Shown here: one piece after another, positions 2,206-61,160 of the stretch
Numbering within the stretch: the stretch's first letter is position 1
Layout of the letters: every line of letters begins with the position of its first letter
The notes under the pieces: model-generated
What the model was told of the DNA's origin: nothing
Databases searched by the model: none
The model's input: the letters and a program-made list of their open reading frames with translations, nothing else
Program-made: the position numbers and the translations under genes
DNA from: Mytilus edulis
Lineage: Eukaryota
Length of the DNA: 64,000 bases
Assembly: GCF_963676685.1 (NCBI RefSeq)
Contig: NC_092357.1
Coordinates: 28,458,001-28,522,000, forward strand
Reading direction: 5' to 3'

Positions 2206-2304
2206 CTTGTCTTTCAAATTGAGATCAATACCACCGTGGATTAATAACTCGACGATATCTGTTTTATGGTTTGATGTTGAGTGGTGAAGTGCAGAGCTAC
2301 CATC
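2206..2304 (-). CDS. Ankyrin exon 11 (99 nt): DGSSALHHSTSNHKTDIVELLIHGGIDLNLKDK
   Basis: Canonical ankyrin motif; acceptor ...tctcaacag, donor gtaacc. Confidence 0.92.
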
Positions 2305-32400: not shown

Positions 32401-35400
32401 AACTGAAATGCCTGTATTCACATAGTTATTTAGCATGAAATGTCATAGATTGACATGTGATTGAACAGTCTTAATTGTGATATTACCCACTTACCCTATC
32501 TTGAATGTTGAGATCAATACCACCCTTAATAAGCAGCATAGCGAATTCTTTAAGCTCTTTCAATGCAGCGTAATGAATAGCAGTATTACCATTCTGTATA
32601 GATAAAACATACGTATTGTTCAGAAAGATTTTGATAATGAAAGAAAGTTGAAAAAGATGAAAGATATATAAAAACTCATATTTTGAAAATAAACATAGAA
32701 TGCCATGACAAAAACAAAAACAAAAATGAAATCAGTGCTCAAAACACATTATACATGTAGAAGACTACAAATAGAGCAAAATGAGTCATACTAAAATCAG
32801 TGGTGACTTGATGTGCTCCTGAAGGGTAGGCCGATCCTGTTCTATTTGTGGCACCTGTCATTTTGATAATGTAAGTATGATAAACTCCTAAAACCACGCT
32901 TAGCATTTTTTGGAATTGATTCCAGTTTCGACCACAGAAGACTCATCATTGATATTCAAGACGAAGTTGAAGAGCATGTGAAAAATATTGAAAGGAACAC
33001 AAACAGGCGTTGATTTTTTTTTTAAATCGCTAGCTCGTTATTGAGGAGAGGAGGAAATAAATGTGATTAAAACAATCAAACAAAACTAATCAGCTATTGT
33101 TCAAATAAAAAAAACCTTTTCTAGATTGAATATTAAAGACTAGAGAATGGGAGAGAGGAATGTGTTAGAGAGACAACAACCCGACCAAAGAACAGAACAT
33201 TAACAGGAACACAAGTTAGACTTTACTACAGGGAAATACTTTGCATCCAGAGTTGAATATAATAAGCACCGCTCTAAGTGTTGACATTTGAAAATAAATA
33301 GCAGTGCTAATGAAATAGGATACAATTTATATGAGACTTCATAGTATACATAACGCAGTTTTAGCCGTTAAAGGAATTCATAAAAGAACGTGCATTGTCT
33401 TCATTTACAGAAGTGCAATCAAGATGGAATGAAAAAGAGATTATATAGAATGGCACAAAAACTGGTTTATCTTCAAAGATTTCTATGGAAAAAAAAATGC
33501 ATGGTTTATCCGATAGGCATGTACACAAAGAAAATTCAAAGCATATGCACATGTGTAACTTAGATTGATAAAATGTGCCTATATTTTCTCCTTTCTGTCA
33601 TGAAAATCTATAAGTTCTAAATGATTACTCTTGGGTGTTTTTGTCCTGTTGAAAACCCATAAGAAAACCAAACTGCATTTTAATTTGACCGTGGCATAAA
33701 GATATAAGCTGCAGAAACCAATACAAATAAAAATAGAGCATTCCTTCTAAAAAAATTACTTAGTATTTCACTCTCATGAACAAATAATTTTTCAGCAAAT
33801 TTGAGACATCAGTGAGATATATAAGATTCATAAATATTTTGTTCAGAGACGTTCTGGTATCCATATACATCATATATGTTCTACGGTGTATTCATTATGA
33901 TTCGTTGAATATTACTACGAACGCGTGTGCAGGGATTTGGAAAAAAAGGAAACCAAATACCATCGACTGCAAGTTTTCCTTCATCCCTGAAAAATACCCA
34001 CGAACATAAATGAATCCACAGTATATATTCATGTCATATAGACATAGTTGAGGAATGTTATCAGTATAGAACACATGCAAATTTTCAAATTTGAAGAAGG
34101 GGTAGTGCAGAAATTTAGTGTATGTCTCAACACTTAAACTTTTAAAACATTAAACATGATTAAATATAAGAAAAAGATTGCTATGTGTGTTACATTTTAG
34201 TGTTATGTCGTTGTTATATTTAATTCCCTCGGTTTGAGTTTGTTACCCCGATTTAGTTTTTTGTGAGTTTTGAACAACGGTTTACTACTGTTGCCTTTAT
34301 TTATTCAGCACCTATTTACATTTTGACAATTGATAAAATAGTAGTGCGTGTAACTTTCCATTCCAGCATATTATTTTCTACAAAATTTCATTGTCAAAGT
34401 AAAACAGTAAACTTATGAGTTTGAATGTCCCTCTTGTACCTTTCCCTTCTCTATTTTAGCCGTAAGAGGAGTGATAAAGGAAACTTGCATTGTCTATATT
34501 CAAATGTGTGCAATATTCACAGTTGACGCAGTGATAATGAAGAGTGTCATGTCCTGTCAATATGGACAAATGCTTTGTCATTTTCAATTTTAGTTTATCA
34601 TCCACTTACGCGATCTTGAATGTTGAGATTAATTCCACCGTCAACAAGCAATTTGGCGAATTCTGTAAATTCTTTAGGTGCAACTTCGTGAAGTGAAAAT
34701 TTTTCTTTCTGTACAGATAAACCATTACAATGTGTACATATTATTGGATAATAATAAAAAATCAAAGATAGCAAATGTATATCATTTATATTGAAACTTT
34801 AATGTCGAAAACTAACTGACAACTTAAAGCCATTTAAAAAAAATTAAACACGAAGACAACAAAAACAGTGCAAAACCAAATGTAAAAGACACAAATAAAG
34901 CAATACAAACCTCGCAACAACAGTGCTACTCATATAAAAAAGCATATTCATTAGATCTTACTCCAAATGTGGCGCACGTTATTTTGCTTGTGTTAGTACC
35001 ATATACTTTATATATTCTAGGATTCGTGTTTTTTAGGCAAGAAAAGAAAACGAAAGAATCGATCATCAGTGATACCCAGATAAAAAAAAAAGAATTGCAA
35101 AACGTACGAAAAGAAAGAGCATTGATGACACAAAAATGAAATAGCTACATTTGTTTTTAATTTGGTATGTAATTTTACAAGAAAAGAGGTCGGGACTGTG
35201 AATACACGTTTCGAACATATATGTTTTTGTCAGATGGATATTCGATAACGGTCAACAAACTCTTGGTGTTGTCTGTGAAATATTCTAAAGGGAAGATAAA
35301 GGCAAATAAATTCAAATTATGAATAACAAATCAATACGGTAGCCTATCAAAGTATACAACCTTTTAGTCTGTAATTGCAACAGCAATTGCAATGTATGTA

Positions 35401-38400
35401 AGCATTAATTTTTGGCGTCTAGCATCACTGAAGGTTGCATATCAATAGCGGCCTAATCAAATTATGGTAAAGATGTAAAATATAGTTTGGTGTAGATATT
35501 TTGTCATTGTTTGTTCAGTTTACGTATTGATTTCAAGATGTAATCTTTATGTTCATCGCAAAGCTATAAGGGTAAATATTTCAAATAATAATACAAATTT
35601 ACAGATGTCCAAATGAATTCGATTCTAGGTTTTTTTTACGAAACACATTGCGAAATGGCAAAGTTTCAACTCTAAAGCAATTCCTATGAAAATTGAACTG
35701 TCTATATTTGCGGATGTTCAACCTATAGAAATATCAAATTTGAAACGATTCCATTTGATGCAATGATTGTTGTTTGTTTCATGTCATGAAACAGATTGAT
35801 CAACTATAATTAAGCATCCACTTACCTGTTCTTCTATATTGAAATCAGTAAGTAAATAGAAGAATTCAGATGCAGCATGGACAAGTGCAGTACTTCCTTT
35901 CTGTACATATACAAAATAATAATGTTAACACTGTTTCTAACATTTGTCTAATGATAAAAGAATAGTGAAATACATAAAAGGTTCTACAAAGGGATATACA
36001 AACTCATTTTACAAAACGACATACGATTAAAATATAGTGAACAAAACAACATAGAAGACTGTGTAATAAGAACCTCACCAAATTGCACATGTTTTTTTGG
36101 TCATGTTATTACTATTAACTCATCTTATAAACCACGGTTCACTCCAGATGCAAGCTTGGTTAACAACATACTCATCACTTATGATCCGTTATTTAAAAGT
36201 ACGAAGATAAAAGTATTGATGAAATAAAATTCAACAACACATAAAAACAAAACAAACCCCGTGATACCCAAAATTGAGTAGATCATATAACACTGCACTG
36301 TTTATTATCATCACATAGTACAGTTTTGCTGGTATGAGATATTTAGAATCTTAATCCTGTAAACGATTGTATATCAATTACGACTACAAGACAAAACATT
36401 CAGTACTTAAGATGATTTGACATGTATAAATACTGTAATATGCCAAAAAAGAAATAACCCGAAATTATGACATAGTTTTAAAAGAAATTGAAGTATATAC
36501 AAACCTTCCATACACTATGTAACTTTTTAAAAGTTTCACAGTTTTAATCATAAAACCATTTCTACCTCTAACTGTCTTTATTAACAGCAATGCGGTCTGA
36601 TGAAATAGTCATTTTCAAAATTTACAGTTGAATCAGATTCAGTAATATTAGTATATATCATGTCATGTTATGTCAAAGGCCGCGGACATATGGTTTAATA
36701 TTCTTAATTGTGATTTATCTTTCACTTACCGTATCTTGGATGTTGAGATCAATACCACCCTTAATTAGCAACTTAGTGAATTCTTTAAGCTCGTTCAATA
36801 GAGTTTTGGAAGGTACAGATCTGTCTTTCTGATAAAAGATAACAATGTTAACATAGTTTTTAACAATAAAAGAAATATGAAAAATAGAAAAGGAATATTT
36901 ATGTCGAAAACAAAATAAAACAAACAAAAATAGCTGCTGATCTGATAACACTTTGAAAGGTTAGCTTCGAATTTTTGTAATACTTTTAGCAATTTAAAAG
37001 TTTAAAATTAATTAATTTTATGGCCAAGAGGAAGATTGTGAAGTGATGCATTCATTTCCGTGAGATAAATTTCAATAATATATGACATACTAGACATTTT
37101 CTAGCATTTTATTGTGTATACTTAAATGATTTGATTTATCTACAATATACTTATATAATTATAATGTGTGAAATATGCCTGGAGGTAGTATCCTTCAATT
37201 ACACTTTCAAGTTAATTAACCGATCAAAAGAAACAGGCAAAAACTGTTCAGTCTTTATTAACAGCTAAGAAATATAAAGGTAAAAGTAAAAAAAAACCAA
37301 AGAGAACTCTCTCGGATATGTCAACAGATTATAATACTAGTATGGATTCATCAGGGATAATAAATTTAAAAAAAGACCAAGATGAAAGGAGTAATGGCTG
37401 ATTTTGGCCTCAAATTTCTAGCCTCACGGTCATAAAACCTTCGAGCATGATTTTTGTACTCAGACTCGAAAATCAACCAATCAAATTGCTGGATTTCATG
37501 TTTCGAGCATGATTTTTGTGCTTCGAGCACTGAGCAAAGTTTTATACCTTCAAGACCAGGTTCATCGAATGAAATATTCTGGAAACTTTTTCAACACTTT
37601 AGTGTCTATTTCAATTGATTCATTTCGTTTATGTGAAAGTTTTTAACTGATAAAGTCAATAAAAACGCCCTGAATCAAGCTTAACTATGAAAAATCTATC
37701 AAATATGCAAAAAAATCGTTACTTTTCAGATGTTTTCTGTCAAAAATAAAAGTGGCCGAAACCATGTTCATCCTCAACCTTTATATATGGTATGTTTTAT
37801 CATCAAATACAACTTACATTTAAATATTATGAATAACCACGAATGCGGCCACTTTCATTTAAGAGGAACACCGTCTAAAATTTAACTAAAATGCAAAAAT
37901 TGTGAAGATGTCAGTAATTTATCATGACTTAATGATAATAGTACACGATATATGTGCATTATATTGTCAAAAACAGCCAATATTCTTGAAGCAGAAGCAT
38001 TATATTTTCACAATTTTGTAAAACAGCTATATTTTGGAGCCGAAAAATGGCCCTACTGAACCTATTACTTTAGCCTCAGGGATGTTACAACAAAATATGA
38101 TCTGAATGAAGTAACAAAAGACCTTTTCAAAGCAGCTGACCTATAGAATATGGTTACTGGTATTGTGGGAAATTTTTAAGTTAATTTGAATCTATTTTAG
38201 ATAAAAAAGATGAACGAAAAATTGAATAAAATCCAAACAGAAATGCAAGAAAAGGTGGAGCCTTATCAATTGAAAATGAACATTTGAGAGAAAAGATAGA
38301 TCAAAATGAAGTCAAAACAATATCAATATATCAAATAGAAAAAAAATGTCTGAAACAACCGAAATTGCTAAAGTAACAAATATATGAAGTGATTACAATG

Positions 38401-47400: not shown

Positions 47401-50400
47401 GCTAGATTAAAACTGACGTAGAAAGGTAACACATGGCCACCGAAAGCTTTACTTTTGAAGCCCATGTGGTCGTGTGGTCTAGCGGGACGACTGCAGTGCA
47501 GGCGATTTGGTGTCACGATATCACAGTAGCATGGGTTCGAATCCCGCCGAGGGAAGAACCAAAAATTTGCGAAAGCAAATTTACAGATCTAACATTGTTG
47601 GGTTGATGTTTAGAAGAGTTATATATACATCTATATATATGACTTTTCGTTCTGATTCGAAATTTGTATTGCACTTTACCCTTTTTTGTTTTTTATTAGT
47701 ATGATTATTATCACTGGTTGTGATATATGGGTGTTTACGGAAGAAGAATGGCCTTATAAATGACAAACAAAGTATATAAAATAGAAACATGAGAAACAAA
47801 CGACAACTACTGGATTTCAGGCTCCTGGCTTACAACAGGCACACACATACATAATGTGGCAAATTTAAACATGTTATCAGGATCACAATCCTCTCCTTAA
47901 CCTAGGACAGTAGTTTTACATAACAACAAAATAAAAAAATACTGAGACCAGTTGAAAAATGCTTAAGATATATACGAAAATAAATACATCTTCAAAATCA
48001 CAGGTTGCACTGTCCGGGTACTTGGACACCCTTACAACAAAGCGACACTTAATACAGATCTGGTATTTGAAAGCTAAAACAAATATAAAATATCAATTAG
48101 TACATTTTACTATCAAATGAATTTAGAGTAAAAACGTCATAAACAGTCAGAGAAGAACATGACCTTGGGTAATGTCAAGACACATATTACAGATCAATGA
48201 CAGTGCAACACTTTCTGTATATGATTCCTCTTAATAAGAGCCCAATAATGTGAGGCTTGTAAATTTGAGTAATATTATTTTTTGTTCTTTCCTGATCCCG
48301 GATTCGACCTAATGCTACTGAGATATCATGGCACCAAATCACCTTGCACTGTGCCTGATGCACTAGACCATTTAACCACCAAACCTCTACAATAATAAAA
48401 CTTTCGGGATAACTGTCCTCGTCAGTTTTAATATAGCCTCATATCACAGCACATGATATATCAGACATGAAAATGGAATTGTTATAGATCAGCTGAAATA
48501 TCTATTATACAGTATCGTACAAACTAATGAAAGATGCGGTTTAAGAAATAGTTATATTATAAATATGTCTGAAGCAGTCACGGCTCTACAAAACATATTA
48601 TCAACTAATGGGGAAAAAAATCATAACAGTGTGTTTTGTTAAATTTATATATCAAATCACATTCTGCATCGGTTATTAAAAGCACTTTTTTAATATATCT
48701 ATATGTGTATTCAAGATTATTGGGAATATTTTTTTTCTCTTTATAGTCACTAAACCCAATAGTATATTGTTGTTGGGTGTTTTTATCAAGTCAAAACCCC
48801 ATAAGTAGAATGTAACACTTGAATGTGCTTTTTGTGACAGCAGCATAGCAAATAACAAGCTAAAGATACAATATACAAATGTAAAAAAAAGCAGATTTGA
48901 GAAACAGAAGATTAAAAAAAACAAACTGAGAAAAATCTGAAACTGAAAAATTAATCTGTAAGGGTATGCTTTTATTTTTACAACGGCCTTTAAAATTTGT
49001 AAAATAACATATACTCTGCTTTAAAGATATTCAAAAACAAAGATTTTAGCAGACATTTCTATAAAACTTTAAGTGAATTTATATATCAAACTGATTCTTC
49101 ATGCATATAAATTTTGCATATCTGACTTTTTGTTAGCCTTCTAGGTCATATATTAGCCAAAGTGTGTTAGATATATACTTAAATATTATATTAATGTAAC
49201 AAAACTTCCAAACTAACAATTTAAAGAAAACATTGTGAACTTGTATAGATAAACAGTATTACAGTAGTAGGGTGTGACCTGGAAACTATGGAGGCATTTA
49301 ATTCGTGAATGTTGGAATGATTGACTACTCCACATTAATAGTATTCTGTAATGTTTCACATTGTTACCAGCATGGTTTCTAGAGACTTCATGTAAAAAAA
49401 ACATTCACGAATTGATAGTCGACAATAAATAAAGACTTCTGATTTAATAATACTGCTATGAGTTAAAAGTGTTTTTTACACATTTACCTTTAAAAAATAT
49501 GTATATATCGGTTTCACTTTTTACACTTTTCAAAAACTACGCCTCTTTCATTGGATATGTTAAATTTGTAGACATTGTGTTTCGTTGACGTATTGGTTTC
49601 CTGATATCACCTCTATCTTTTACCTCATAGAGACATAAAATTAGACTATAAATGCATTTGAAAAACGGTAAAGTTGAATCTTTATGAATATCCAGAACGA
49701 TCCGAGTAGTACAATGTAGTTAAAAAATAAAGTAAGTCTATAAACTCTTCTAAAAAATTAAAATCACAAAAGACAGAACTAAGTTTGAGGCACTAAAATG
49801 TTTAAATTATGAGGCACTAAAATGTTCAAATTATGAGGCACTAAAATGTTCAAATCATGAGGCACTAAAATGTTCAAATTATGAGGCACAGTCCTATACC
49901 TTGACTTTTGAAAAACATTATATTGTAGATGAAATGTCCATTTTCTCAGTTCAACGAAACTTCATAGTAATATATAGTTGACATAGTAAAAATACTTCCC
50001 GTGACAATTGTCTACATTTAAAAAAGTGCGATCTAAAGAAATATTCATTGTCAAAATTTGAAATTCAAACTTAACCACGAAAAAGGATAATTGTACATAT
50101 GAACTCTCAATCATAAGCTTTTTAAATATAAAACCGGTTAAAATAGCATTGCCAATAATTAAAAAGGTACAAAATGGAGAGAAATTTCAAAATTCACATT
50201 AAATTCAGTTATATTGATATTTTTTGTGTCATATTGAAGCTTGAATTTTGAAGTTAGATTTATTATCCACTTACCTTGTTTTTTTCATTGATATCAAAAA
50301 CCAACTTCGCAAATTCAAATGCAGCGTGGTGAAGCGAAGTACAACCTTTCTGTACAGATAAAATATTACAATTTCAACATGATTCAGTAATTAATGAAAA

Positions 50401-53400
50401 GAATATGTAAGATTAGTTAGTGATATTCAAAGCAATTTGTCGAAAATAAACTGTCGAAAATGTCATGGCAAAAATGAAAAAAAAAAACGACGACGCCGCA
50501 GAACCCTGATTTAACCTTAGAACATATGTAATTTCATGAGTTATCGCATAACGGTCAACAAAATATCTGAATTGTGCATGAACTTTTTGAATGGATGATA
50601 ACTGAATGTGACACATATTCTTTTCCTCATGGTAGTACTATTAACTTATCAATCTATATTTTACTCCAGATGCAAGCTTGGTTCACAATCGACTCATCAC
50701 TGATGATCACTTTAATCAAAAGTACGAAGTTAAATGGTACGGAAGAGTCAATATTCAAAAAGGTCCAAACTCACTGATATATTGAAAATAAAGATGTCAT
50801 CTTTGAGAGAATGTAACTGAGAATACAACCATTGCAACTAATCTGTTGTCACTCTGTCCACAACGTACAAAACAACTCGTGATTTCGTGTGTAAAATGTT
50901 CGAAGAGATTTCAAAGGAATTCATATATGTTATCATAGGAGAAAAACAATAACGAATACTACAATGAGTAACAAATCAACCCGGTAGCCAATATCAAAGT
51001 TTATTAACAGCTTCGTATTAGCACATACTACAATTTTGTGAGTGGGTATATTTCGAATTATAATTTTGTTATTTGTATCTTACAATCTATAAAGGTTTTT
51101 TTGGGAGAGGGAGTGCATAATTTTAGTATATTTATGAACGTTCAGAAGTTTGGGGCATATGACACATACAAATACAAATTATTCTTACTAATCCCATTGC
51201 CCGTAAAAGAGCAGAATAATGACAAATCAATTACGACTACCATACAAAACATACAATACTGAACTTGATTTGATATGAATAATTATAATAAGCTTTAATG
51301 TTAGACCAAGCTTTGAAAAAAGAGGCACATTACACATTTTCTATACAATATGTAACATTGTGCACAAATCATTGTAAAATGTCACACAGTGTTAATCCTT
51401 CTAAAATCTCTAATTACAGCAATGCGATCTGAACATATATTCATTTTCTAAACTTATAGTTTATTTAGTTAAGGAAGTTTGCTTGTCATGTTATGGGATT
51501 TTGGTCAGATTTACGGAATTCTCTGTTTTTTTTCCATTTGAAAGCCTTAAAAAAATGCCCTTTGACCCTACTTATCATTTTACAAATCTTTTACATGTAT
51601 TATGATAAGTTATCTGATAAAGCTTTGAAAAGACAAAAGAGAGTATTTTCCCGCCAAAATTGAAATATGCACATTGACCTATATATATATATATATATAT
51701 ATATTTTGTTGCTCATTTTGGTTCCTTTATTAATCCCCTATCAACATAAACTAGTGATTTAAAAAAATAATTATTTGGAAACTGAGAAGCGAACTCCCTC
51801 AAACAAGATTATGTACCGTCATGTCAGAGACTGACATAGGATTAAACTTACCCTATCTTGAATGTTGAGATCAATACCACCCTCAATAAGCAACTTGGTG
51901 AATTCTCTAAGCTCTTTCAATGCAGTGGTATATGGTGCAGTACTATCTTTCTGTATATATACACAATAACAATGTTTAAATAGTTTTCATTTATAAACGA
52001 AATTTGAAAGATAACAAATGGATATGTATGTCGAAATAAATTAACAAAAAAAAATACAAAGTGCAGATCACACAACATGGAAATAAAGGACTAAAAAACA
52101 AGTATCCCGCTAATTCCCGGTGATGTCACATGTTTCTGAGTAGATCCATCTCCACATGTAGAACATGTAAGTAAAATAAAATAATTACATATCACATGAT
52201 TCAATTTTAGTATGCCAGACGCGAATTTCACACACAAAAGACTCTTTATAAATGATCCAATCAAAAATATATACAAAGGTCAAAGAAATAAATATATAAA
52301 ATGCAAGAAAGACTTAAAAAGTTATAAAATATGTGATTGAACATGAGTATACACTTGTATGGTGTTATCATACACGCATGATACGACCGTATGTGTATGT
52401 TCATGGTAATTGACACGTTTACTTTGAATACGTAACTCTTTATAAGGTATGACCCTGTTAGTTGTCACATCATTTAAAAGACGCTACTTAAGAAATAACT
52501 AGATTAACTAAATTCACGCTGTTAATTTTACTCACTAGTCAAAGCTGTAGTAAATACATTTGATAACAATGGTCATTACCAATTTGTTATCACGAGTAAA
52601 TGGTTACATATGAACCTCGAAAAACATCTTCCAAAATATTTAAATGAACTTTTACACAACAAATCAACTCGTTTACTATCTGATGAAAAAGCGTTCAATT
52701 TGAGAGCAAAGGGTGTTTATACAAAAGATCGTGCACAACCAAAACGCTTAAGTCACTTGTGAAAGTAAATGTCACCCTAAGAATACAATCAACAATACAA
52801 CTAGGGATACAACCAACCCGTGGCACCAACAGTCAATGTTTTTGTATCATTTAAATTGTAAATTGTACATTTTGCTTAACCATCATTAGGTGTTTTTTTT
52901 AGATACAGTTTATTGTTATACATGTAGTAATGCAAAGTTTACATACTGAATATCTAGAAAAATACCTGTATGTTCGAAATACTTATATGGCCTAGTATAT
53001 CTGGAAAATATTATCAACTAACAAAACAAAAATACAGTCCTTGGTCGGTGTAAACTTCTCACTAACACACCATTACACCATTTACCATACACCCTTTCAT
53101 CATAAACCTTGTGCCATTACACCATACACGTTACACCTTTGCACCATACACTTTACACATTAAACCATACACCATTCCCCTTCTTTCTACACGATCCAAA
53201 ATTACCGATTATGCAAATAAATTTAGAAGAAAGCGTGCGACTACAAAAATACGTTTATTTTTTTGTTTTAAAAAACGAATTTTGATCACAATATTGTAAA
53301 TTCATGAATAAAATTCAGACCTTCATGAGCATGGTTATATAAACAATACAGATAAAACATATACACATATATTTGTAAATAAAAATAAGTCCATGATCTG

Positions 53401-56400
53401 CCTTTTTGAAAAAACGATATATTAAGTACTGATCATGTTTAAAGTGTAGCGTAAATCTTTCGAACTTTGTTTTCAGATAAATCGATTAACAATGCAAAAA
53501 ACTAATGGTTGTTGATTATATAAAATAACAACAACAGTACCAAGCTATTGAATGTAATACTGGTGTACATGGTGTACAGTTAACCAGTCAAGTCGAACTC
53601 GGAAACTCGAGTACAAGTATACTCGGTTTTGCGAGATAACGATCCCGTCATGCAATAATTTGTCATGTTTATGGCCAGTGTAGTATAATTAATATTTCTT
53701 TTTTCCTGCCCAAGTCAACAGTGCAAACATGAATGTCCTTTTTTTCAAACAACTGAGTCATCAACAGAAATCAGTTGTTTGCATATCTCAGACTGGCTCC
53801 AATATAACATGTTTTATTGTCTCAGGAAAAAATTATCTAAACGCAACAACCAAATCTGAGCATATTTTAATATGTAAATAGGAGTTTTTTACAATCCGAA
53901 AGATTAAAATAAAATGAACTTCGGTTTCATCCAGTGCAATATCGTACACCATTCATTCATATAATTCGTTACACTATCACACAATTCCTCATACACCAAT
54001 ATATCATTTCTTTTACCCCACACACCATATCAACATACACATGATACACATTCTACCATTGCATTATACACCATACACCATTACACCATACACTTTAGTT
54101 TTGAAAGTTTACACCACCAAAGGGCTGTAACAGTAAGTTTCGTTGTATTTAGCTATCAAATCAGCATATATTCACATTATGAATAGGTCATGAAAAACAA
54201 AGTTTTTTTTTTAATATCGACATTTGCCGTCACGACTAATGAAAAGTGCATACAAATGTATGTTTACTCTTTCCAGTAATCGAAACCAATAGATTCTTGA
54301 TTGAAAGTGTTTTTTTTTTATTATAGAAAACCCAGCAGCAAAAAGTTACACATTAATCATATGGCAAAAATCAAGGGTATATTTTCAGATGATTTGAACC
54401 ACGTGACTTTAGCCCTTTTGAATAAATTACTTCCCTTAGTGTAGAAATGAATATACTATTAACTTCCTCTAGCGGATAAATCCAAAAATGTTGTGTAATT
54501 CTAAGCGAAAATGCTGAAAAAATGGCTTTTCACGAAATGGTGAGGTTGAATACGTCATGTTTAAAAAAAACTTGGCAGAAAACGAAGAAATGCATGTACA
54601 TTTGTGTAAGTTGAAAAATATTTTAAATTTAGAATTCAACCTACAAGGTGTTTCCCTGTATGCGAACAAATCATGTACAATATCTTGAAGATATCATGAT
54701 TTCTATTTTGAACCTTGCTTTTCCACGATTCTGTACGATCGTTCGCTATTGAACATAGCAATAAAACAACGGTTTCACTTTCTTCACTTTCTAAAAACTA
54801 CGCCTCTTTTATTGAATACTAGTATTCATAGATAATTCGTTTCGTTTACGTACTGGTTTCTTAAAAGTTTCCTGTCTTTTCCCACACAGAGACTTAAATT
54901 TATCATATAAAGGCATATAAAAAGCAGTAAAAATGTATTCCAATGAATATCAAAAATAAATGGAGAGGCTACAATGTGGATCAACATTAAAGTGAGTTTT
55001 TAAAATCAAATTAGTTTGAGGTACTTAAATGTTTAACTTATGACGCACATTCCTACTTATAGACAAATCATGCATCTAAGACTAAATTATCAATCCGGAC
55101 ACATCCAACAGGCAATGGATTTAGTGTAAAGAATTCATAAACAGACAGAGAAAAAAATAACCTAGTGCAATGCCAAGATACAGGTATCGACATATTGTAG
55201 ATACATGAATGTGTATAAATGTATATAACATACAAGAAATATTTAGTTTGCTTTAAATTTACTGATAAAAAAATCAATGTTTATACCCAAAAAATCAACG
55301 ATATCATTACAGTCTAATGAGAAACATTTGTGGCATTTTTTAGGGATAATAAATTGCCAATAATTACAGAAGAGCAAACTGTTAAGATGGGCAATTTCAA
55401 AATTCATATTTAATACAGTTATATTGGAATTTGTTGTGTCACGTTAAAGCTTGATTGATTATTATTTTAAGTTTGCATTTTGATTTATTATCCACTTACC
55501 TTGTCTTTTATATTGATTTCAAAAAGCAACTTTGTAAATTCAAATGCAGCGTGGTGAAGTGCAGTACAACCTTTCTGTACAGATAAAATATTACAATGTT
55601 TATATGATACAGTAACTAATTGAAAAAAAGGTGCAAGATTTAACAGAAATGTCTTATTAGTGGAGTGACCAAGCAAACAATTTTTTCAACTTTAATGGAA
55701 CACCCTACCTGCAAGCTAAACTATGACTTTTTGGAAAGAAAAAAAGTTTATTCTTTAAATTTTGCGTGGTCGTAGAATTGAAATATGGTGCAAGTCTTTT
55801 TAAAATGAATCAAAGGTTAGTGATTGAGTTTTTTTCACTATTGTCAATTTATTTCATCAGAGGTTATAAAAAGTCTCGAAAAAATATTAATAAAATGTTA
55901 CTAAACAAGAAATTCATAATGAAATAAACTGTGACATTTCATTTTCAAATTAAATTTGAAAATAATGAAACCACCAAATGCATATTTCATAAAATTCAGA
56001 CTAGCAACAAAATAGGAGATGGACCATTCGAATCTCAATTAATTTTTTACATCGCATGTACTTGTAAAGGTATATTTCTGAATTTTACGGCATTTATAAA
56101 AAGAAACGAAGTCAATTTGGTTTTTGTGATGTATATGTATTACCAGTCACAAACATTTCACAAGGCAATTAAATAAAATGAGTTTAATGATGGACTAAAG
56201 TTTCAGCGCATATTCTAACTCTAGGATTTTTTAGGTATGGTTTTATGTGCCTTTTCCTTACAAAATCACATATGGATCGCTTAGACAGATTGGTGGCATG
56301 GGGTATTTTAACAAATAAAGGGCATGACAACTTTCGAAAACCTGACATCAGTTATCGTTTTCATCGTCGTATACTTCCGATATTGCTCGGTGAGTTAAAT

Positions 56401-59400: not shown

Positions 59401-59799
59401 AAATCATGAGATTATCAAAGTTATCTAAATTACAAATGTTGTATCCACTTAGTTAAAAACTTAGTTAAAATTTCGCTAAACTAAATGAAAATTGACAAAA
59501 ATTGGAAAAAAATAAAAAAAATCCTTGTTTTACATTATGAATAAACAATTAAACTGTGTATAAATGCAAATTCGTATGTCAAAAGACACATGTAACTTTT
59601 TTCGCAACTTCATAGTTTTAACCATTAAAGTCATTTTACCAGTTCGTTAGAATAATTGTCTTTATTTGAATCATACCGCAATTATCTATCATCAACTTAC
59701 CCTATCTTGAATGTTGAGATCAATACCACCCTTAATTAGCATCGTGGTGAATTCTCTAAGCTCTTTAAATTTGATGCTTGGATGTACAGCTCCATCTTT
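2206..59799 (-). CDS. Partial multi-exon ankyrin-repeat protein gene: join of 59701-59799, 55500-55574, 51852-51950, 50275-50349, 36730-36828, 35826-35900, 34610-34708, 32495-32593, 20764-20862, 7729-7827, 2206-2304 (1017 nt, 339 aa); 5' and 3' ends not seen
   Basis: Eleven mutually homologous minus-strand segments, each bounded by an AG acceptor and a GTAA donor, all multiples of 3, open in phase 0. They translate to ankyrin-like units (GxTALHxAA...LL..GG.DLN..D). Joining them into one transcript is inference. Confidence 0.85.
2944..3083 (+). ncRNA. Retrozyme fragment with type I hammerhead ribozyme motif (2995-3040), mutated in stems III and I
   Basis: GCGTCA-CTGATGA-GTC-TTTTGTA-GAC-GAAA-GACGCGTC-TTGCGT: intact CUGAUGA and GAAA core plus stem II. 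The other copies read GCGCGTC-TGGCG after the GAAA position. Confidence 0.85.
3085..4953 (-). mobile_element. Diverged inverted copy of the composite element at 9488-10949
   Basis: 3085-3997 is reverse-complementary to about 10127-10890, and 4790-4953 to about 9505-9672, with blocks in the same order. Confidence 0.8.
5644..6428. mobile_element. MITE with G/C-run subterminal repeats and TTA TSD (PIF/Harbinger-type), with an internal insertion
   Basis: TTA|GGGGACAACCATTTGATATTCT-G(n) ... C(n)-AGAATATCAAATGGTCGTCCCC|TTA. Confidence 0.8.
7729..7827 (-). CDS. Ankyrin exon 10 (99 nt): NDLTALHTATRSEHTQMVRMLIQRGCYLNDQDK
   Basis: Canonical ankyrin motif; acceptor ...ctcattttag, donor gtaaac. Confidence 0.92.
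8396..8452. repeat. (TA)n microsatellite; others at about 1868-1894, 8607-8629 and 51680-51703
   Basis: Directly visible. Confidence 0.98.
8628..9345 (-). mobile_element. tRNA-derived (SINE-like) repeat, about 1.5 tandem units of about 455 bp plus a short inverted terminal piece
   Basis: Reverse complement has A-box TGGTCRTGTGG-TCTAG and B-box GGTTCGAATCC. Units start at about 8628 and 9084; inverted piece at 9293-9345; flanked by (TA)n. Confidence 0.75.
9488..10949. mobile_element. PIF/Harbinger-type non-autonomous element with TAA TSD, carrying nested MITEs (about 9840-10118 and 10465-10737)
   Basis: TAA|GGCCGTGTTCACA ... TGTGAACACAGCC|TAA. Confidence 0.8.
11070..12293 (-). mobile_element. 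Harbinger-derived non-autonomous DNA transposon with an N-terminal transposase remnant
   Basis: TIR CCCCAGTCGCATTAGACCACGATCGCACTACG / CGTAGTGCGATTGTGGCCTAGTGGGACTGGGG. Minus strand about 11453-11560 reads PWLAAERRLLFCHYDQLMTEL*IEDEPSFFNFSRMP, resembling Harbinger transposase N-termini (family call from recall). Confidence 0.7.
12367..16029. mobile_element. TIR-bounded DNA element of about 3.7 kb containing a BEL/Pao fragment and degenerate internal repeats
   Basis: Perfect 23-bp inverted termini ACCAAGCATTACATGTAGACGGG (12373) / CCCGTCTACATGTAATGCTTGGT (ends 16023), with weaker inverted similarity extending about 200 bp inward. Confidence 0.8.
12780..14270 (+). mobile_element. Degenerate, internally deleted BEL/Pao LTR retrotransposon pol (RT and integrase fragments)
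   Basis: WYLPLFGVYQSKKPDQIRGVFD at about 12964-13029; integrase core TRAYHIELIEEISSS...RRFADLRG...SNRGTHFIGA in ORF 13521..13766; many stops and frameshifts. Confidence 0.85.
16720..20185 (+). mobile_element. Degenerate Academ-like DNA transposon with long (several hundred bp) TIRs
   Basis: About 16755-17250 is inverted relative to about 19690-20160. Interior encodes PRNWQNFLKDDDNNKELSSF, RTVDTDVV...LWFAFGIGKNFRYLSIH (XPG-like region) and a C-terminal Cys-rich finger at about 19340-19435. Starts with TAG. Superfamily call from recall. Confidence 0.65.
20345..20607 (+). repeat. Abundant interspersed repeat (aagatgtggt...gccaatgagacaact...); related copies at 44925-45750, 47750-48200, 55050-55300 and 28980-29180 (-)
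   Basis: Mutually alignable copies within the window; family not assigned. Confidence 0.75.
20764..20862 (-). CDS. Ankyrin exon 9 (99 nt): NGSTALHQAAFKKLTEFANLLIVGGIKLNIKDR
   Basis: Canonical ankyrin motif; acceptor ...tctttgcag, donor gtaagt. Confidence 0.92.
21077..21458 (+). ncRNA. Second-family retrozyme monomer (360-bp period) with a degenerate hammerhead (about 21376-21429)
   Basis: 22-nt terminal direct repeat attggtaacg(g/t)taatgttatta at 21077 and 21437. Hammerhead-like GCATCA-CCAAAGA-GAC...GTC-GAAA-TTGCATC-TGGTG with the CUGA core mutated. Confidence 0.7.
21789..22580. mobile_element. Helentron/HINE-like element (inner copy)
   Basis: aaactagaggctctaaagagcctgtgtcgctcacc ... agctcacttggcccttcgggcccggtgagctaaaaa; inserted in an A-run of the outer copy. 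Confidence 0.8.
23230..23666 (+). mobile_element. Non-autonomous Helitron
   Basis: A|TC 5' end; imperfect subterminal hairpin cccgcgatatcacgag then CTAG|T 3' end; no TSD. Confidence 0.7.
26348..26510 (+). mobile_element. Penelope-like element fragment (RT to GIY-YIG linker)
   Basis: FITQYHANTGNLQTVMRNDWHFIQDNPQFTNLF...TIAFKRNRN in ORF 26263..26496 resembles the PLE linker (TYHP...W..L...IAFRR.KNL). Confidence 0.65.
26960..28040. repeat. Satellite-like array of about 195-bp units (about 5 copies) followed by an inverted unit
   Basis: Motif tattgatcttactgaatcc..ggtc..tgtagtttggtgtattgctgtcaaa at about 26983, 27178, 27368, 27574 and 27766; reverse-complement copy at about 27858-28040. Confidence 0.85.
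28085..28362. repeat. Degenerate array of about 10-bp units (ggtcgagact)
   Basis: Repeated gtcgagac / gtcaagac / ttaagac units. Confidence 0.75.
28487..29882. mobile_element. MITE-like element with GGCCACA(C/A)CAATTT termini and nested insertions
   Basis: taa|GGCCACAACAATTTGATTCCTT ... AAGAAATTAAATTGGTGTGGCC|caa. Confidence 0.6.
30926..31418. repeat. Recent tandem duplication of about 245 bp (30926-31170 and 31171-31418)
   Basis: Near-identical adjacent copies with a few substitutions and one 3-nt indel. Confidence 0.95.
31398..31757 (-). ncRNA. Near full-length retrozyme monomer with the hammerhead 3' half deleted
   Basis: Reverse complement matches the 2944-3083 and 44120-44257 family (gagcgtcactgatgagtctttt), but the GAC-GAAA...GTC segment is missing. 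Short terminal redundancy (gactaa..tagt.ta) at both ends. Confidence 0.8.
32495..32593 (-). CDS. Ankyrin exon 8 (99 nt): NGNTAIHYAALKELKEFAMLLIKGGIDLNIQDR
   Basis: Near-canonical 33-aa ankyrin repeat; acceptor ...ctatacag, donor gtaagt. Confidence 0.92.
34610..34708 (-). CDS. Ankyrin-like exon 7 (99 nt): KEKFSLHEVAPKEFTEFAKLLVDGGINLNIQDR
   Basis: Acceptor ...tctgtacag, donor gtaagt; open in phase 0. Confidence 0.85.
35826..35900 (-). CDS. Short ankyrin-like exon 6 (75 nt): KGSTALVHAASEFFYLLTDFNIEEQ
   Basis: Acceptor ...atgtacag, donor gtaagt; same 25-codon length as exons 2 and 4. Confidence 0.8.
36730..36828 (-). CDS. Ankyrin-like exon 5 (99 nt): KDRSVPSKTLLNELKEFTKLLIKGGIDLNIQDT
   Basis: Acceptor ...ttttatcag, donor gtaagt; lies inside ORF 36715..36951. 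Confidence 0.85.
37386..38070. mobile_element. Probable non-autonomous DNA element with a nested short MITE (about 37425-37560)
   Basis: Imperfect inverted ends (agtaa...attttggcctcaaa / ttggagccgaaaaat...ttact); inner piece ggtcataaaac ... gttttatacc. Confidence 0.45.
39039..39950 (+). mobile_element. Degenerate L1/Tx1-clade LINE ORF2, APE endonuclease domain (possible ORF1 remnants upstream from about 38100)
   Basis: MGSVKILSVNCQGLGD...IYCIQDTHF, RGVAVMFNN, YGPN, ICGDFNLVL and SDHS motifs in order, with stops and frameshifts. Confidence 0.85.
40001..40975 (+). mobile_element. 5'-truncated Penelope-like retroelement: RT C-terminal half plus 3' tail
   Basis: FGGRVFEQTIGIP, TNCAP, FRYIDDVL (40162-40185), YPI...KDTT, KLYDKR, ISQLIRYS; tail gggtgccacatg...cttacccttccggagcacctgagatcaccc. 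Confidence 0.85.
40985..41824 (+). mobile_element. Continuation of the L1/Tx1-like ORF2 (post-RT region); may resume after 43127
   Basis: RLLGVNI, FLWN and GGLKMIN...KVTWIK motifs, degenerate. Confidence 0.7.
41825..43127. mobile_element. Helentron/HINE-like element with two internal tandem units of about 500 bp
   Basis: Same ends as 21789-22580; internal units start at about 42055 and 42558. Confidence 0.85.
43060..44877. repeat. Two abutting inverted-repeat pairs: A 43060-43256 / A' 43781-43969 and B 43968-44086 / B' 44759-44877
   Basis: Near-perfect reverse-complement matches read directly. Confidence 0.92.
44120..44257 (+). ncRNA. Retrozyme fragment with hammerhead motif (44213-44257) carrying a G12A core mutation
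   Basis: GCGTCA-CTGAGGA-GTC-TTTTGTA-GAC-AAAA-TGCGCGTC-TGGCG. Confidence 0.8.
47377..47640 (+). mobile_element. tRNA(Leu)-like SINE-type repeat; other copies at 46248-46380 (+) and 48255-48600 (-)
   Basis: GCCCATG-TGGTCGTGTGG-TCTAGCG...GGGTTCGAATCCC (47460-47545); acceptor stem does not pair as in a real tRNA. Confidence 0.75.
49787..49889 (+). repeat. 24-bp tandem repeat, about 4.3 copies (gaggcactaaaatgttcaaattat)
   Basis: Directly visible; single-copy in the paralogous module at about 55018-55048. Confidence 0.93.
50275..50349 (-). CDS. Short ankyrin-like exon 4 (75 nt): KGCTSLHHAAFEFAKLVFDINEKNK
   Basis: Acceptor ...tctgtacag, donor gtaagt; paralog of 55500-55574. Confidence 0.85.
51852..51950 (-). 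CDS. Ankyrin-like exon 3 (99 nt): KDSTAPYTTALKELREFTKLLIEGGIDLNIQDR
   Basis: Acceptor ...tatacag, donor gtaagt; open in phase 0. Confidence 0.85.
53035..54127. mobile_element. TIR element with TA TSD and (ACACCAT)n-like subterminal repeats
   Basis: TA|CAGTCCTTGGTCGGTGTAAACTT ... AAGTTTACACCACCAAAGGGCTG|TA. Confidence 0.75.
55500..55574 (-). CDS. Short ankyrin-like exon 2 (75 nt): KGCTALHHAAFEFTKLLFEINIKDK
   Basis: Acceptor ...tctgtacag, donor gtaagt; lies inside ORF 55488..55676; GxTALHxAA motif. Confidence 0.85.
56850..57004 (+). ncRNA. Degenerate retrozyme/hammerhead fragment
   Basis: GTGTCC-CTGATGAATGA-GTC-TTATGAA-GAC-GTA-CGCGCGTC-TGGCGT; core has an insertion and GAAA is lost. Confidence 0.7.
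57990..58203 (+). mobile_element. Solo Penelope-like 3' tail (same family as 40765-40975); related pieces at about 7180-7425 (+), 32700-32875 (-) and 62690-62935 (-)
   Basis: Aligns directly to 40765-40975. Confidence 0.85.
59701..59799 (-). CDS. Ankyrin-like exon 1 (99 nt): KDGAVHPSIKFKELREFTTMLIKGGIDLNIQDR
   Basis: Acceptor ...tgcacag, donor gtaagt; open; C-half nearly identical to the other 99-nt exons. Confidence 0.8.
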
Positions 59800-60508
59800 C
59801 TGTGCAGATTAAAGTTTACAATGTTTTAATAGTTGAAAAAAATGAAAGATAACGAAGGGATATCTATGTCAAAATCACATGACTGTGATATACTCACAAG
59901 AGCTCGAAATGTTATGCGTTTATGAGTTAACAGGTGAGATAATTCCAGAATTCATATTTCGTACGCCAGACGCAAACTTCGCACACAAAAGATTCTGCAG
60001 TAATACTCATGTAAAATTAAGATATATTCAAAAAGGCCAAAGAAAGTCGAAAATCAAAGAGATTATGAATTCAGAACAAATACGAAACCATTGACTATGT
60101 CTGAATAAAATAAATTAAAAAAAAACAACAACACACCAATAACAAAAAAATCGAAACGTTTCACTGTAATTACACATGTATCAATAAATAATGATGATTC
60201 TAGATAACCTTAATCAATTTGATAATGATGTACTAGTAACTCAATCATATCAATCTAATCTGATTAAACTATTACAATCTTTAAATTTATACAATTAAAC
60301 AACTGTTGAAATTGAACACAAATACTCTTGTTTAATTCTAAATTTAAAATATAACGTAGGTCAGTTTGCTATTTACAACATATTCAGCAAAGATTATACT
60401 TTAGATAAAAATAGTAATTTGCGAAATAATCTGGTACAATTCCAAAATTTTTAAGCTGATGACAGTTAAGATGTTACATCAGCAATGTAATGGGAAAACA
60501 AATCTCAC

Positions 60509-60692
60509 NNNNNNNNNNNNNNNNNNNNNNNNNNNNNNNNNNNNNNNNNNNNNNNNNNNNNNNNNNNNNNNNNNNNNNNNNNNNNNNNNNNNNNNNNNNN
60601 NNNNNNNNNNNNNNNNNNNNNNNNNNNNNNNNNNNNNNNNNNNNNNNNNNNNNNNNNNNNNNNNNNNNNNNNNNNNNNNNNNNNNNNNNNNN
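60509..60692. other. Assembly gap (184 N)
   Basis: Run of N. Confidence 1.
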
Positions 60693-61160
60693 TCCTTTCC
60701 CTTTCCCGAGGCCATCCTCCCTAGACCAATCAGTGTTATTTCCTTTGATTGAAATGGTCGATTGATTGGGATATGTCCGTGTGTTGTCAGTGGATCTCAA
60801 ATGTCGATTGAGAGGAAGGTCTGGCTTGAATTCATAGTCGCCGTTCATTCATTTGTGAAATGGCGGTTCTGCATCGCCAACATATTGTTTACCAAATTGA
60901 CACTGTTGAAGATGAACATCATTGTTAGTCTTTCAATTAACATTGCAAAATATGGTGTTTCCCGTACCAATGGAGGGACTTTCGGAAGTCTGGGCACCCT
61001 TTTAGTATTCGGTATTAGTTCACAAGTCAGACAGCAGTTGTATTCTTGCAAGAGTACAGAGACAAAGAGCTGCTGTTGATGTTAAATCAGCTCTCACCAA
61101 TAAAGTTATATCTTGCATTGCTGTATATATATCGACAATGCAATTTACCATTGGAACTCC
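60693..61160 (-). mobile_element. Degenerate Penelope-like GIY-YIG endonuclease fragment; a further PLE linker piece (LTYHP) at about 61430-61600
   Basis: CCLTCELI...N*KTNNDVHLQQCQFGKQYVGDAEPPFHK*MNG...PLNRHL matches the PLE pattern C.T.NVVY...C.C.KQYVGET...RMN.H. Confidence 0.7.

Follow-up and report, generated by a model that had tools for sequence, protein, structure and literature searches.

Why should the same decayed ribozyme lie in the intron ahead of one ankyrin exon after another? The question arises in a 64-kb window of mussel DNA (the whole stretch analyzed, 64,000 nucleotides), in which a sequence-only reading had described six ankyrin exon modules, each with a hammerhead-retrozyme relic upstream. 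The relic might be a passenger that dates the expansion of the array, or it might have taken part in it.

The exon array and its hammerhead relics

Six modules do bear relics, as that reading held, although the modules number nine and three of them have no hammerhead relic. The nine exons are related, ankyrin-type, in phase 0 and on the minus strand, spanning 20764-59799 (six of 99 nt, three of 75 nt), and two further ankyrin exons lie downstream:

59701..59799, minus strand: exon A1, ankyrin-type, 99 nt, phase 0
55500..55574, minus strand: exon B1, 75 nt; no upstream relic or tail detected
51852..51950, minus strand: exon A2, 99 nt
50275..50349, minus strand: exon B2, 75 nt
36730..36828, minus strand: exon A3, 99 nt
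35826..35900, minus strand: exon B3, 75 nt
34610..34708, minus strand: exon A4, 99 nt
32495..32593, minus strand: exon A5, 99 nt; Pfam Ank 30 bits, exceeding the curated cut-off
20764..20862, minus strand: exon A6, last module, 99 nt; no sense relic
7729..7827, minus strand: exon C1, a more distant ankyrin; no relic or tail in the 600 nt upstream
2206..2304, minus strand: exon C2, ankyrin; no relic or tail in the 600 nt upstream

Besides these 11 (nine modules plus C1 and C2), no further decayed exons were found within the window. Homology at the DNA level joins all nine module exons, of which two (A5 and A6) pass the Pfam PF00023 cut-off, two more match weakly and five have no match. AG/GT splice sites and an open frame are intact in every one of the nine detected module exons, an outcome with a neutral probability of about 5e-4 at 0.15 changes per site, copies being taken as independent; their dN/dS is about 0.85. 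The repeats are degenerate, and three exons are short by 8 residues. A protein search with exon A5 plus nine in-frame upstream codons, a weak test, gave 15 candidates, none at E ≤ 0.01, and only two open stretches of at least 130 codons occur in the window. Two RNA runs chosen by species label (about 19% and 13% read), with depth judged in bins over four exons and three relics, gave zero depth and no splice joints on the four exons, and no reads on the three relics except a depth of 0.22 in one bin. The ends of the array are hidden, one by an N gap in the assembly (60509-60692) that begins about 450 nt upstream of the first relic, the other by younger insertions starting 150 nt past the last donor (A6). 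The flanks of A6 are homologous to those of other modules for about 90 nt upstream and about 150 nt downstream.

The relics were all recovered on the minus strand at the places reported. They are decayed sense-strand fragments of a type I hammerhead retrozyme, present upstream of A1, A2, B2, B3, A4 and A5 and absent before the exons at 55500 (B1), 36730 (A3) and 20764 (A6). They stand 160-355 nt from the exon start (163-355 nt when measured from the relic ends of that reading, against its stated 160-360 nt):

59955..60061, minus strand: relic before A1, profile HMM E 1.6e-7, cleavage-equivalent position 59969
52206..52287, minus strand: relic before A2, profile HMM E 2.6e-4, cleavage-equivalent position 52218
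50660..50769, minus strand: relic before B2, profile HMM E 1.7e-4, cleavage-equivalent position 50669
36139..36232, minus strand: relic before B3, profile HMM match 36142-36232, E 0.51, cleavage-equivalent position 36147
35033..35133, minus strand: relic before A4, profile HMM match 35060-35133, E 0.0043, core recognizable in its 5′ half only
32898..32977, minus strand: relic before A5, profile HMM E 0.047, cleavage-equivalent position 32918

The profile HMM was built from four free window copies and one outside copy (L027), the relics themselves being left out; the top match in the reversed window, which served as control, had an E of 15. The outside copy came from a metagenome scan that gave 28 outside loci, 27 of them GC-rich chance matches that were dropped, and the searched genome and viral contigs held no hammerhead-family copy. 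A covariance model made from three free copies finds three of the six relics clearly (20-23 bits, E 4e-4 to 3e-3) and one at E 0.18, the other two falling within noise (E 2.8 and 8.1). An Rfam scan returned six matches at E ≤ 5, none of a hammerhead family, and missed near-intact free copies as well. The weakest relics (36142 and 35060) are supported by alignment and position, not by score alone. Judged by homology to the hammerhead-bearing monomer family, detected by HMM in all six, the relics derive from a retrozyme.

As had been claimed, every relic core is mutated, at 2-8 of 16 positions (numbered by the hammerhead convention), and none of the six retains the conserved catalytic core of an active type I ribozyme. 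Each core position survives in at least two of the six relics, and no position has been lost through one identical change in all of them. In each of the five relics whose loop III can be aligned, the loop opens with T, so that its palindrome, a feature tied to the active dimer (PMC4209133), is gone. Identity is 63-68% to the free-copy consensus and 50-66% between relics (80% for B2/B3). Each relic is a lone, truncated fragment about 80-140 nt long, and the 5′ 260 nt of the monomer were not found above any of the six (z ≤ 2.1); the relics do not form the tandem array of at least two units, each with a whole hammerhead, by which 10.64898/2026.07.22.740005 defines a functional retrozyme.

Eleven hammerhead-family copies lie in the window, the six relics and five younger free copies, four of the latter antisense and the single sense copy without half of its core. 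A near-whole monomer of about 340-350 nt at 31419-31756, in sense after A5, shares about 90% identity with a free copy and is much younger than the relics. Another monomer, antisense and 240-600 nt upstream of A6, is an independent copy near an exon. That at least six of 11 copies should fall in sense within the 400 nt before nine exons has a chance of about 2e-7, for windows picked post hoc.

The retrozyme piece and the Naiad fragment

Most relics had been said to be followed by a Penelope-like tail, and matches were indeed obtained at A5, A2, A4, B2 and, weakly, B3; the A1 module (59701) has no tail HMM match. The module tails most plausibly derive from the reverse transcriptase C-terminus and 3′ UTR of a Naiad element:

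52060..52164, minus strand: Naiad 3′ UTR remnant before A2, HMM E 5e-7
50830..51039, minus strand: remnant of a Naiad ORF end lying above the B2 relic, E 1.4e-4; aligned with the free copy near 43400, z 10.6
50418..50614, minus strand: Naiad 3′ UTR remnant before B2, HMM match 50418-50488, E 0.02
36861..36946, minus strand: terminal Naiad tail remnant before A3, z 2.1 against the free tail (weak)
35987..36116, minus strand: shortened Naiad 3′ UTR remnant before B3, weak, HMM match 36046-36082, E 1.1
35158..35359, minus strand: Naiad ORF end and 3′ UTR start upstream of the A4 relic, z 10.4 against free Naiad 40589-40730
34795..35020, minus strand: Naiad 3′ UTR resuming past the A4 relic, HMM match 34797-34992, E 1e-4
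32672..32871, minus strand: Naiad 3′ UTR remnant before A5, the best kept, HMM E 2e-17

The B2 3′ UTR remnant holds an extra Naiad ORF-end piece (about 50501-50604), and the A3 remnant is strong against the A2 module (z 15.9). Five free Naiad pieces lie in the window. In the one near 40300-40975, the upstream broken reading frame matches the C-terminus of the Naiad consensus by eye, and the free 3′ UTR motif is, again by eye, common to two supplementary consensus 3′ ends (PMC8557442). A module contains about 450 nt of the Naiad 3′ end only, and the GIY-YIG endonuclease, CxC and DKA regions are not present in the window; 5′ truncation is usual for Naiads (PMC8557442). Because the tail is Naiad, and this clade is reported to be without canonical hammerheads (PMC8557442), the retrozyme and the tail are two separate elements.

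Their relation is clearest in A4, where free Naiad 40589-40730 aligns to 35297-35158 (z 10.4) and the match resumes from about 40728 at 35019, with the relic in between. By this alignment the retrozyme piece is nested within a Naiad 3′ fragment; Naiad continuing upstream of the relic is significant in two of the six modules only (B2 and A4). The stretch common to B2 and A4 above their relics was also considered as the rest of the retrozyme monomer, a candidate rejected since it is Naiad. Ungapped comparison of the 45 nt leading up to the Naiad marker gives a match of 0.59 among B2, B3, A4 and A5, versus 0.31 when shifted. The last 28 of these nucleotides match free Naiad at 14-16 of 28 positions and the first 17 at 3-5 of 17, while the same 17 match the retrozyme end at 8, 13, 5 and 8 positions, respectively. 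So aligned, the retrozyme/Naiad junction is the same and in register in four modules. Elsewhere the two elements are not joined in this way: no Naiad tail comes after any of six free hammerheads, and no hammerhead precedes any of four free tails.

This in-register junction, together with a relic-to-acceptor spacer that is homologous between modules, collinear introns and two shared tree splits, argues for a single origin, in which the six relics would share one ancestral insertion copied along with the exon. The comparison of relic and exon phylogenies that had been suggested gives agreement between the relic-plus-tail tree and the exon tree on two of three splits, (A1,A2) and (B2,B3), as 7 of 105 trees would; exon tree support is low (40-52), and the tail-only tree conflicts on two splits. 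Shared derived bases among the relics number 90 versus 78 expected, a weak excess (z 1.9). Those of the tails were rejected as proof of single origin, the value being 0.51 versus 0.50 with a free old copy. Such weak or subfamily-explained sharing could be left behind if members of an old retrozyme subfamily had inserted near the acceptors six times independently, and the antisense monomer before A6 shows that independent copies do land near exons. However, the common strand, the one Naiad junction in four modules, the homologous acceptor spacer, the collinear introns and the positional chance of 2e-7 all speak against separate arrivals, which the in-register junction largely refutes and which we consider extremely improbable. 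The stem of the relic clade is short (0.10) compared with its own branches (about 0.3-0.45); since, in addition, no core change is common to all six, the core was perhaps intact when duplication began. As a single insertion copied with the exon, the relic would be a usable marker, and the suggestion that it is a passenger dating the expansion holds up well.

The copied unit and its history

The relic is not the only old repeat to accompany these exons. A third, with a free copy at 23680-24170 on the plus strand, is present past five of the nine donors:

54785..55399, minus strand: third repeat after the B1 donor, in pieces
49511..50036, minus strand: third repeat after the B2 donor
35653..35733, minus strand: third repeat after the B3 donor
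34030..34527, minus strand: third repeat after the A4 donor, two pieces
31996..32424, minus strand: third repeat after the A5 donor, E 1e-19

Because this repeat travels with five of nine donors, the relic is not singled out. The point bears on whether selection has kept the relic as a co-opted splicing element. Five core positions are kept in all six relics, though the alignment was anchored on them; against this, the three modules without a relic keep their exons, the relics are only 50-66% alike (B2/B3 80%) and the third repeat is retained about equally often, so that co-option has next to no probability.

The introns also bear on what was copied. Those of A2-B2 and A3-B3 share three ordered blocks at 79-83%, two of them upstream of the relic; the B1 and B2 introns are homologous to about +730, and homology above the relic exceeds z 3 in four of 15 module pairs. 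Intron homology lies on both sides of the exon and is collinear between copies, in one intron pair along the full length. Given the Naiad sequence upstream of the relic, the third repeat in five modules and these collinear introns, the copied unit is the whole intron plus exon, with the relic internal, and later an A+B doublet of several kb. The unit proposed at the outset, retrozyme plus Penelope-like tail plus exon, proved too small, Naiad and the third repeat extending beyond it.

Copying of a whole intron and exon, then of doublets, fits tandem duplication at the DNA level, for which symmetric phase, equal orientation and splice sites are found in all nine exons. We therefore regard such duplication as the probable origin of the array, with the relic a passenger and most likely no cause. 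An intron of the ancestral ankyrin gene would have gathered three repeats: an unnamed dispersed repeat directly past the donor; a 5′-truncated Naiad fragment whose end lies about 45-60 nt short of the acceptor; and, inside the 3′ UTR of that Naiad, a piece of about 140 nt from a type I hammerhead retrozyme that had landed there. The phase-0 exon and whole intron would then have been duplicated in tandem, first singly and later as doublets, most likely through unequal crossing over between modules, and all three repeats would have been carried through the duplications before decaying. The hammerhead would do no cutting now and would have had no part in making the copies.

The start of the array could also have been seeded by a repeat: had a second copy of Naiad or of the retrozyme lain beyond the ancestral exon, an unequal crossover between the copies, with its breakpoint inside the repeat, could have produced the first duplication, whole-module homology serving later. 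Repeat-mediated rearrangement is an established process, both families are dense (five free hammerhead-family copies and five free Naiad pieces per 64 kb), and the ancestral intron was mostly repeats. The 423 nt above the first relic have no match in other modules, but 11 of the 15 module pairs also have no clear homology above the relic, which makes the absence at A1 uninformative. Moreover, the sequence downstream of A6, the last module, yielded neither a relic nor a tail in sense, the sense monomer at 31419-31756 (about 90% to a free copy) is far younger than the relics (63-68%), and Naiad on both sides makes the relic itself an unlikely breakpoint. Seeding is accordingly an unlikely beginning.

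Less likely still is the suggestion that self-cleavage and Penelope-like reverse transcription took part in exon amplification, for which no positive support emerged. After a first duplication, an exon between two still-active sense hammerheads would have been released as a circular RNA of about 1-1.6 kb and copied in tandem by a Penelope-like element. PMC7229834 does report, for retrozymes, that two hammerheads free the sequence they enclose as circles of 150 to >1000 nt, with copying thought to be by Penelope-like reverse transcriptase. The relics lie in the cleaving sense, the survival of every core position in at least two of them and the short stem of their clade are compatible with former activity, and head-to-tail copies would be compatible with homology flanking the site on both sides. 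Yet two hammerheads are required, and the start of the array is then impossible, the ancestor having had a single truncated hammerhead; as noted, the 5′ 260 nt of the monomer could be detected above none of the six relics (z ≤ 2.1), and the loop III palindrome was lost already in the ancestor. The model in PMC7229834 integrates at new loci, whereas the modules stand in place, in order and in a hierarchy of doublets. Each A+B doublet holds an internal relic that would be cut, four of the five younger free copies are antisense and the sense one is without half of its core, and in the released RNA the Naiad tail would sit close to the 5′ end, away from the end where priming takes place. Taken together, this leaves RNA-level amplification very unlikely.

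Relation to known systems

Symmetric phase-0 exons that encode repeat domains are known to duplicate in tandem and to take passenger repeats with them. The array resembles such cases in having one ankyrin repeat per exon, head-to-tail order, a co-copied intron and higher-order doublets, and differs in that its passenger is a ribozyme element and its repeats are degenerate; at this locus an ordinary process can be seen clearly. Mussel non-LTR retrozymes with a type I hammerhead measure about 350-390 bp and number about 5000 copies (PMC7229834). The free copies resemble such metazoan elements (type I, 6-bp helix I, short helix III), as does the window monomer of about 340-350 nt (31419-31756), the likeness being one of layout and length; the six relics differ as single truncated fragments with broken cores rather than tandem repeats. 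Likeness to Naiad (PMC8557442) extends, by eye, to the free-copy C-terminus, the 3′ UTR motif and 5′ truncation, whereas the modules hold only about 450 nt of the 3′ end, with the hammerhead as a nested guest. Amniote intronic hammerheads, conserved and intact according to work cited in PMC7229834, likewise lie in the sense strand of introns, while the relics described here are decayed.

Were ribozyme-driven copying true, it would constitute a new route of exon multiplication, in which a retrozyme captures and multiplies a host coding exon; no report of ribozyme-driven exon multiplication was found in the open-licence literature. A retrozyme piece nested in Naiad has a slight bearing on which Penelope-like element moves mussel-type retrozymes. 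In the array as it stands, old intronic repeats mark the order in which the exons of a repeat-domain gene were duplicated and, by branch lengths, would place the start of its expansion soon after the retrozyme landed.

An ankyrin exon array

The window is AT-rich animal DNA (GC 28-39% per 2 kb), with a single N gap at 60509-60692, and carries 11 phase-0 exons on the minus strand, bounded by AG and GT. Its repeats, their resemblance to mollusc Naiad consensus sequences, and the gill-metagenome label of datasets that contain it suggest a mytilid bivalve. Nine of these constitute the expansion, as 99-nt A-type and 75-nt B-type exons, in the following order of transcription:

from 59701, minus strand: A1, 99-nt exon
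55500-55574, minus strand: B1, 75-nt exon
from 51852, minus strand: A2, 99-nt exon
50275-50349, minus strand: B2, 75-nt exon
from 36730, minus strand: A3, 99-nt exon
35826-35900, minus strand: B3, 75-nt exon
from 34610, minus strand: A4, 99-nt exon
from 32495, minus strand: A5, 99-nt exon
from 20764, minus strand: A6, 99-nt exon
7729 and 2206, minus strand: two more distant phase-0 exons downstream of the expansion

The Pfam ankyrin cut-off is passed by two of the nine module exons; two match weakly and five not at all. Splice sites at both ends and an open frame are kept in all nine, and a DNA profile search of the window found no decayed additional exon copies. The neutral chance of finding nine of nine intact is about 5e-4 at 0.15 changes per site, assuming independent copies, and 0.006 when the copies are counted as six. 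From these intact ends and frames, together with pooled dN/dS of 0.86 (15 A pairs) and 0.83 (3 B pairs), it looks as though the reading frame is maintained while the residues drift. RNA depth was zero on the four exons tested, in two runs of which about 19% and 13% of the reads were covered. The three B exons have two in-frame 12-nt deletions in common, and B3 and B2 are more diverged in the exon (67%) than in the flanking introns (79-83%). At 35324-36302, sequencing runs X4 and X11 carry second versions, about 90% identical, alongside near-identical ones; these second versions would come from a paralogous array or from a diverged allele. In the B1-side intron after A1, long stretches of 56500-59300 resemble a decayed coding transposon, with no open stretch of 130 codons.

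Retrozyme relics inside a Naiad element

All six decayed retrozyme relics that the sequence-only reading had placed upstream of A1, A2, B2, B3, A4 and A5 were matched, in the gene's sense, by a profile whose training set was four free hammerhead-family copies of the window plus an outside one. E ran from 1.6e-7 to 0.51, and the reversed window gave nothing better than E 15. Modules B1, A3 and A6, three of the nine, yielded no relic. Every relic core is indeed mutated, lacking 2-8 of 16 positions in the numbering that we assume for the hammerhead. Searches with hammerhead models, which the same reading had proposed, gave a divided answer: Rfam matched none of the relics, nor the free copies, while a covariance model recovered three relics clearly and one marginally, leaving two in noise. 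That the relic has been co-opted is scarcely credible.

Most relics had also been described as followed toward the exon by the tail of a Penelope-like element (PLE), and this holds: the tail precedes four of the six relic-bearing exons at E<=0.02 and a fifth weakly, with no profile match before A1, where the final few dozen bases alone align. A3 and A6 retain the last 90-100 nt of the common upstream stretch (z 15.9 and 7.1 vs A2). The free tail at 40750-40975 continues upstream into a broken frame that, compared by eye, reads like the C-terminus of a Naiad consensus in the supplement of PMC8557442, where two consensus ends also carry its 3' UTR motif (likewise by eye). Because the tail reads as Naiad, and Naiads are reported in PMC8557442 to be without canonical hammerheads, tail and retrozyme are two separate elements. 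A tail follows none of six free hammerhead copies, and a hammerhead precedes none of four free tails. The free Naiad copy has a ~370-nt inverted repeat at its 5' end (40231-40604), a feature described for PLE insertions (PMC8557442).

The main new fact is that the retrozyme scrap, as judged from alignments, lies nested within Naiad. In A4, free Naiad 40589-40730 aligns to 35297-35158 (z 10.4), and the alignment restarts at about 40728, opposite 35019, with the relic sitting between both parts. About 190 nt above the relics are common to B2 and A4 (z 6.8), and in B2 this stretch aligns with another old Naiad piece (z 10.6); the other four relic modules have no significant upstream Naiad match. 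Downstream, the junction stands in ungapped register in B2, B3, A4 and A5 (identity 0.59 vs 0.31 shifted), and retrozyme gives way to Naiad some 28 nt ahead of the marker. Taken by itself, the retrozyme side scores lower, at 0.44 against a shifted maximum of 0.36. The rest of the retrozyme monomer was considered as the source of the B2/A4 stretch and ruled out: in a comparison with the monomer at 31419-31756, its first 264 nt had no match above any of the six relics (z<=2.1). Module B2 alone has a second Naiad ORF-end piece between relic and tail end (50501-50604, minus strand).

The duplicated intron and its probable single origin

The unit proposed earlier, comprising retrozyme, PLE tail and exon, gives way to a larger one, in which the whole intron was apparently copied with the exon. 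The A2-B2 and A3-B3 introns share three ordered matching blocks (79-83%), of which two lie upstream of the relic, B1 and B2 remain homologous for about 730 nt past their donors, and a third, unnamed old repeat follows the donors of B1, B2, B3, A4 and A5. Its free copies are:

23680-24170, plus strand: inverted copy
44318-44442, plus strand: free copy
61112-61192, plus strand: free copy

Another copy within the A4-A5 intron (33250-33420, minus strand), with no exon remnant before it, is perhaps a module that has lost its exon. Given the nesting, the collinear introns and the third repeat after the donors, the ancestral intron would have run from the donor through the third repeat into the Naiad ORF end, then the retrozyme piece, then the Naiad 3' UTR, and over a last 45-60 nt to the acceptor. 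This whole intron would have been duplicated together with the exon, and in later rounds A+B doublets were presumably the unit copied. Three repeats were passengers, the relic among them. Quite probably, ordinary tandem duplication of intron plus exon took along a retrozyme scrap nested in Naiad; that a repeat seeded the start of the array is unlikely.

Independent insertion of the relics near the exons is hardly tenable. The chance of their positions is about 2e-7, with position windows set post hoc. In the phylogenetic comparison that had been suggested, relic-plus-tail and exon-plus-flanks trees of the six modules agree on the splits (A1,A2) and (B2,B3), where 7 of 105 trees would have two splits in common; exon-tree support is low (40-52) and the tail-only tree conflicts at two splits. 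Shared derived bases proved uninformative as proof of common origin, with 90 observed vs 78 expected in the relic, and the tail's excess gone against a free old copy (0.51 vs 0.50). What supports a single origin is the junction, together with the spacer and the collinearity of the introns.

Free copies and a proposed ribozyme route

2993, 21374, 44211 and 56927, plus strand: younger free hammerhead copies, antisense to the ankyrin gene
31414, minus strand: younger free copy, the sole sense one, core broken
31419-31756, minus strand: near-whole younger retrozyme monomer, ~340 nt, gene's sense, A5-A6 intron
21095-21460, plus strand: whole antisense monomer, 240-600 nt upstream of A6, from a more distant hammerhead-family repeat

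The orientation bias fits selection against live sense copies, at an n of 5 too small for a test; depletion from introns is reported in Xenopus (10.64898/2026.07.22.740005). The monomer at 31419-31756 is without the 3' half of the hammerhead core, just where it borders on a 250-nt tandem duplication (30917-31419). In the monomer at 21095-21460, helix II is longer and the ends carry a 22-nt direct repeat.

Self-cleavage and reverse transcription might themselves have amplified the exon. Because every core position is retained in at least two relics, and their common stem (0.10) is short relative to their own branches, the core may have been whole at the onset of duplication. However, the ancestor carried one truncated hammerhead, and release of a monomer takes two, a criterion used in 10.64898/2026.07.22.740005. 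Loop III begins with T in all five relics where it aligns, so that the palindrome associated in PMC4209133 with the active dimer of short-helix-III hammerheads is gone. Moreover, the retrozyme model has copies arise at new loci (PMC7229834), the A+B doublets contain an internal relic, and four of the five younger free copies are antisense, the lone sense one lacking half its core. Among the papers listed in a search of open-licence literature, partly judged by title, none on ribozyme-driven exon duplication came up. The array ends that would decide are hidden in the window, and we regard this route as very improbable beside tandem duplication.

Close to their 5' ends, both monomers carry a motif (31660-31720, minus strand; 21100-21160, plus strand) that resembles, by eye, the 5' ends of two mussel Naiad consensus sequences. 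This likeness, if real, would tie these retrozymes to Naiads.
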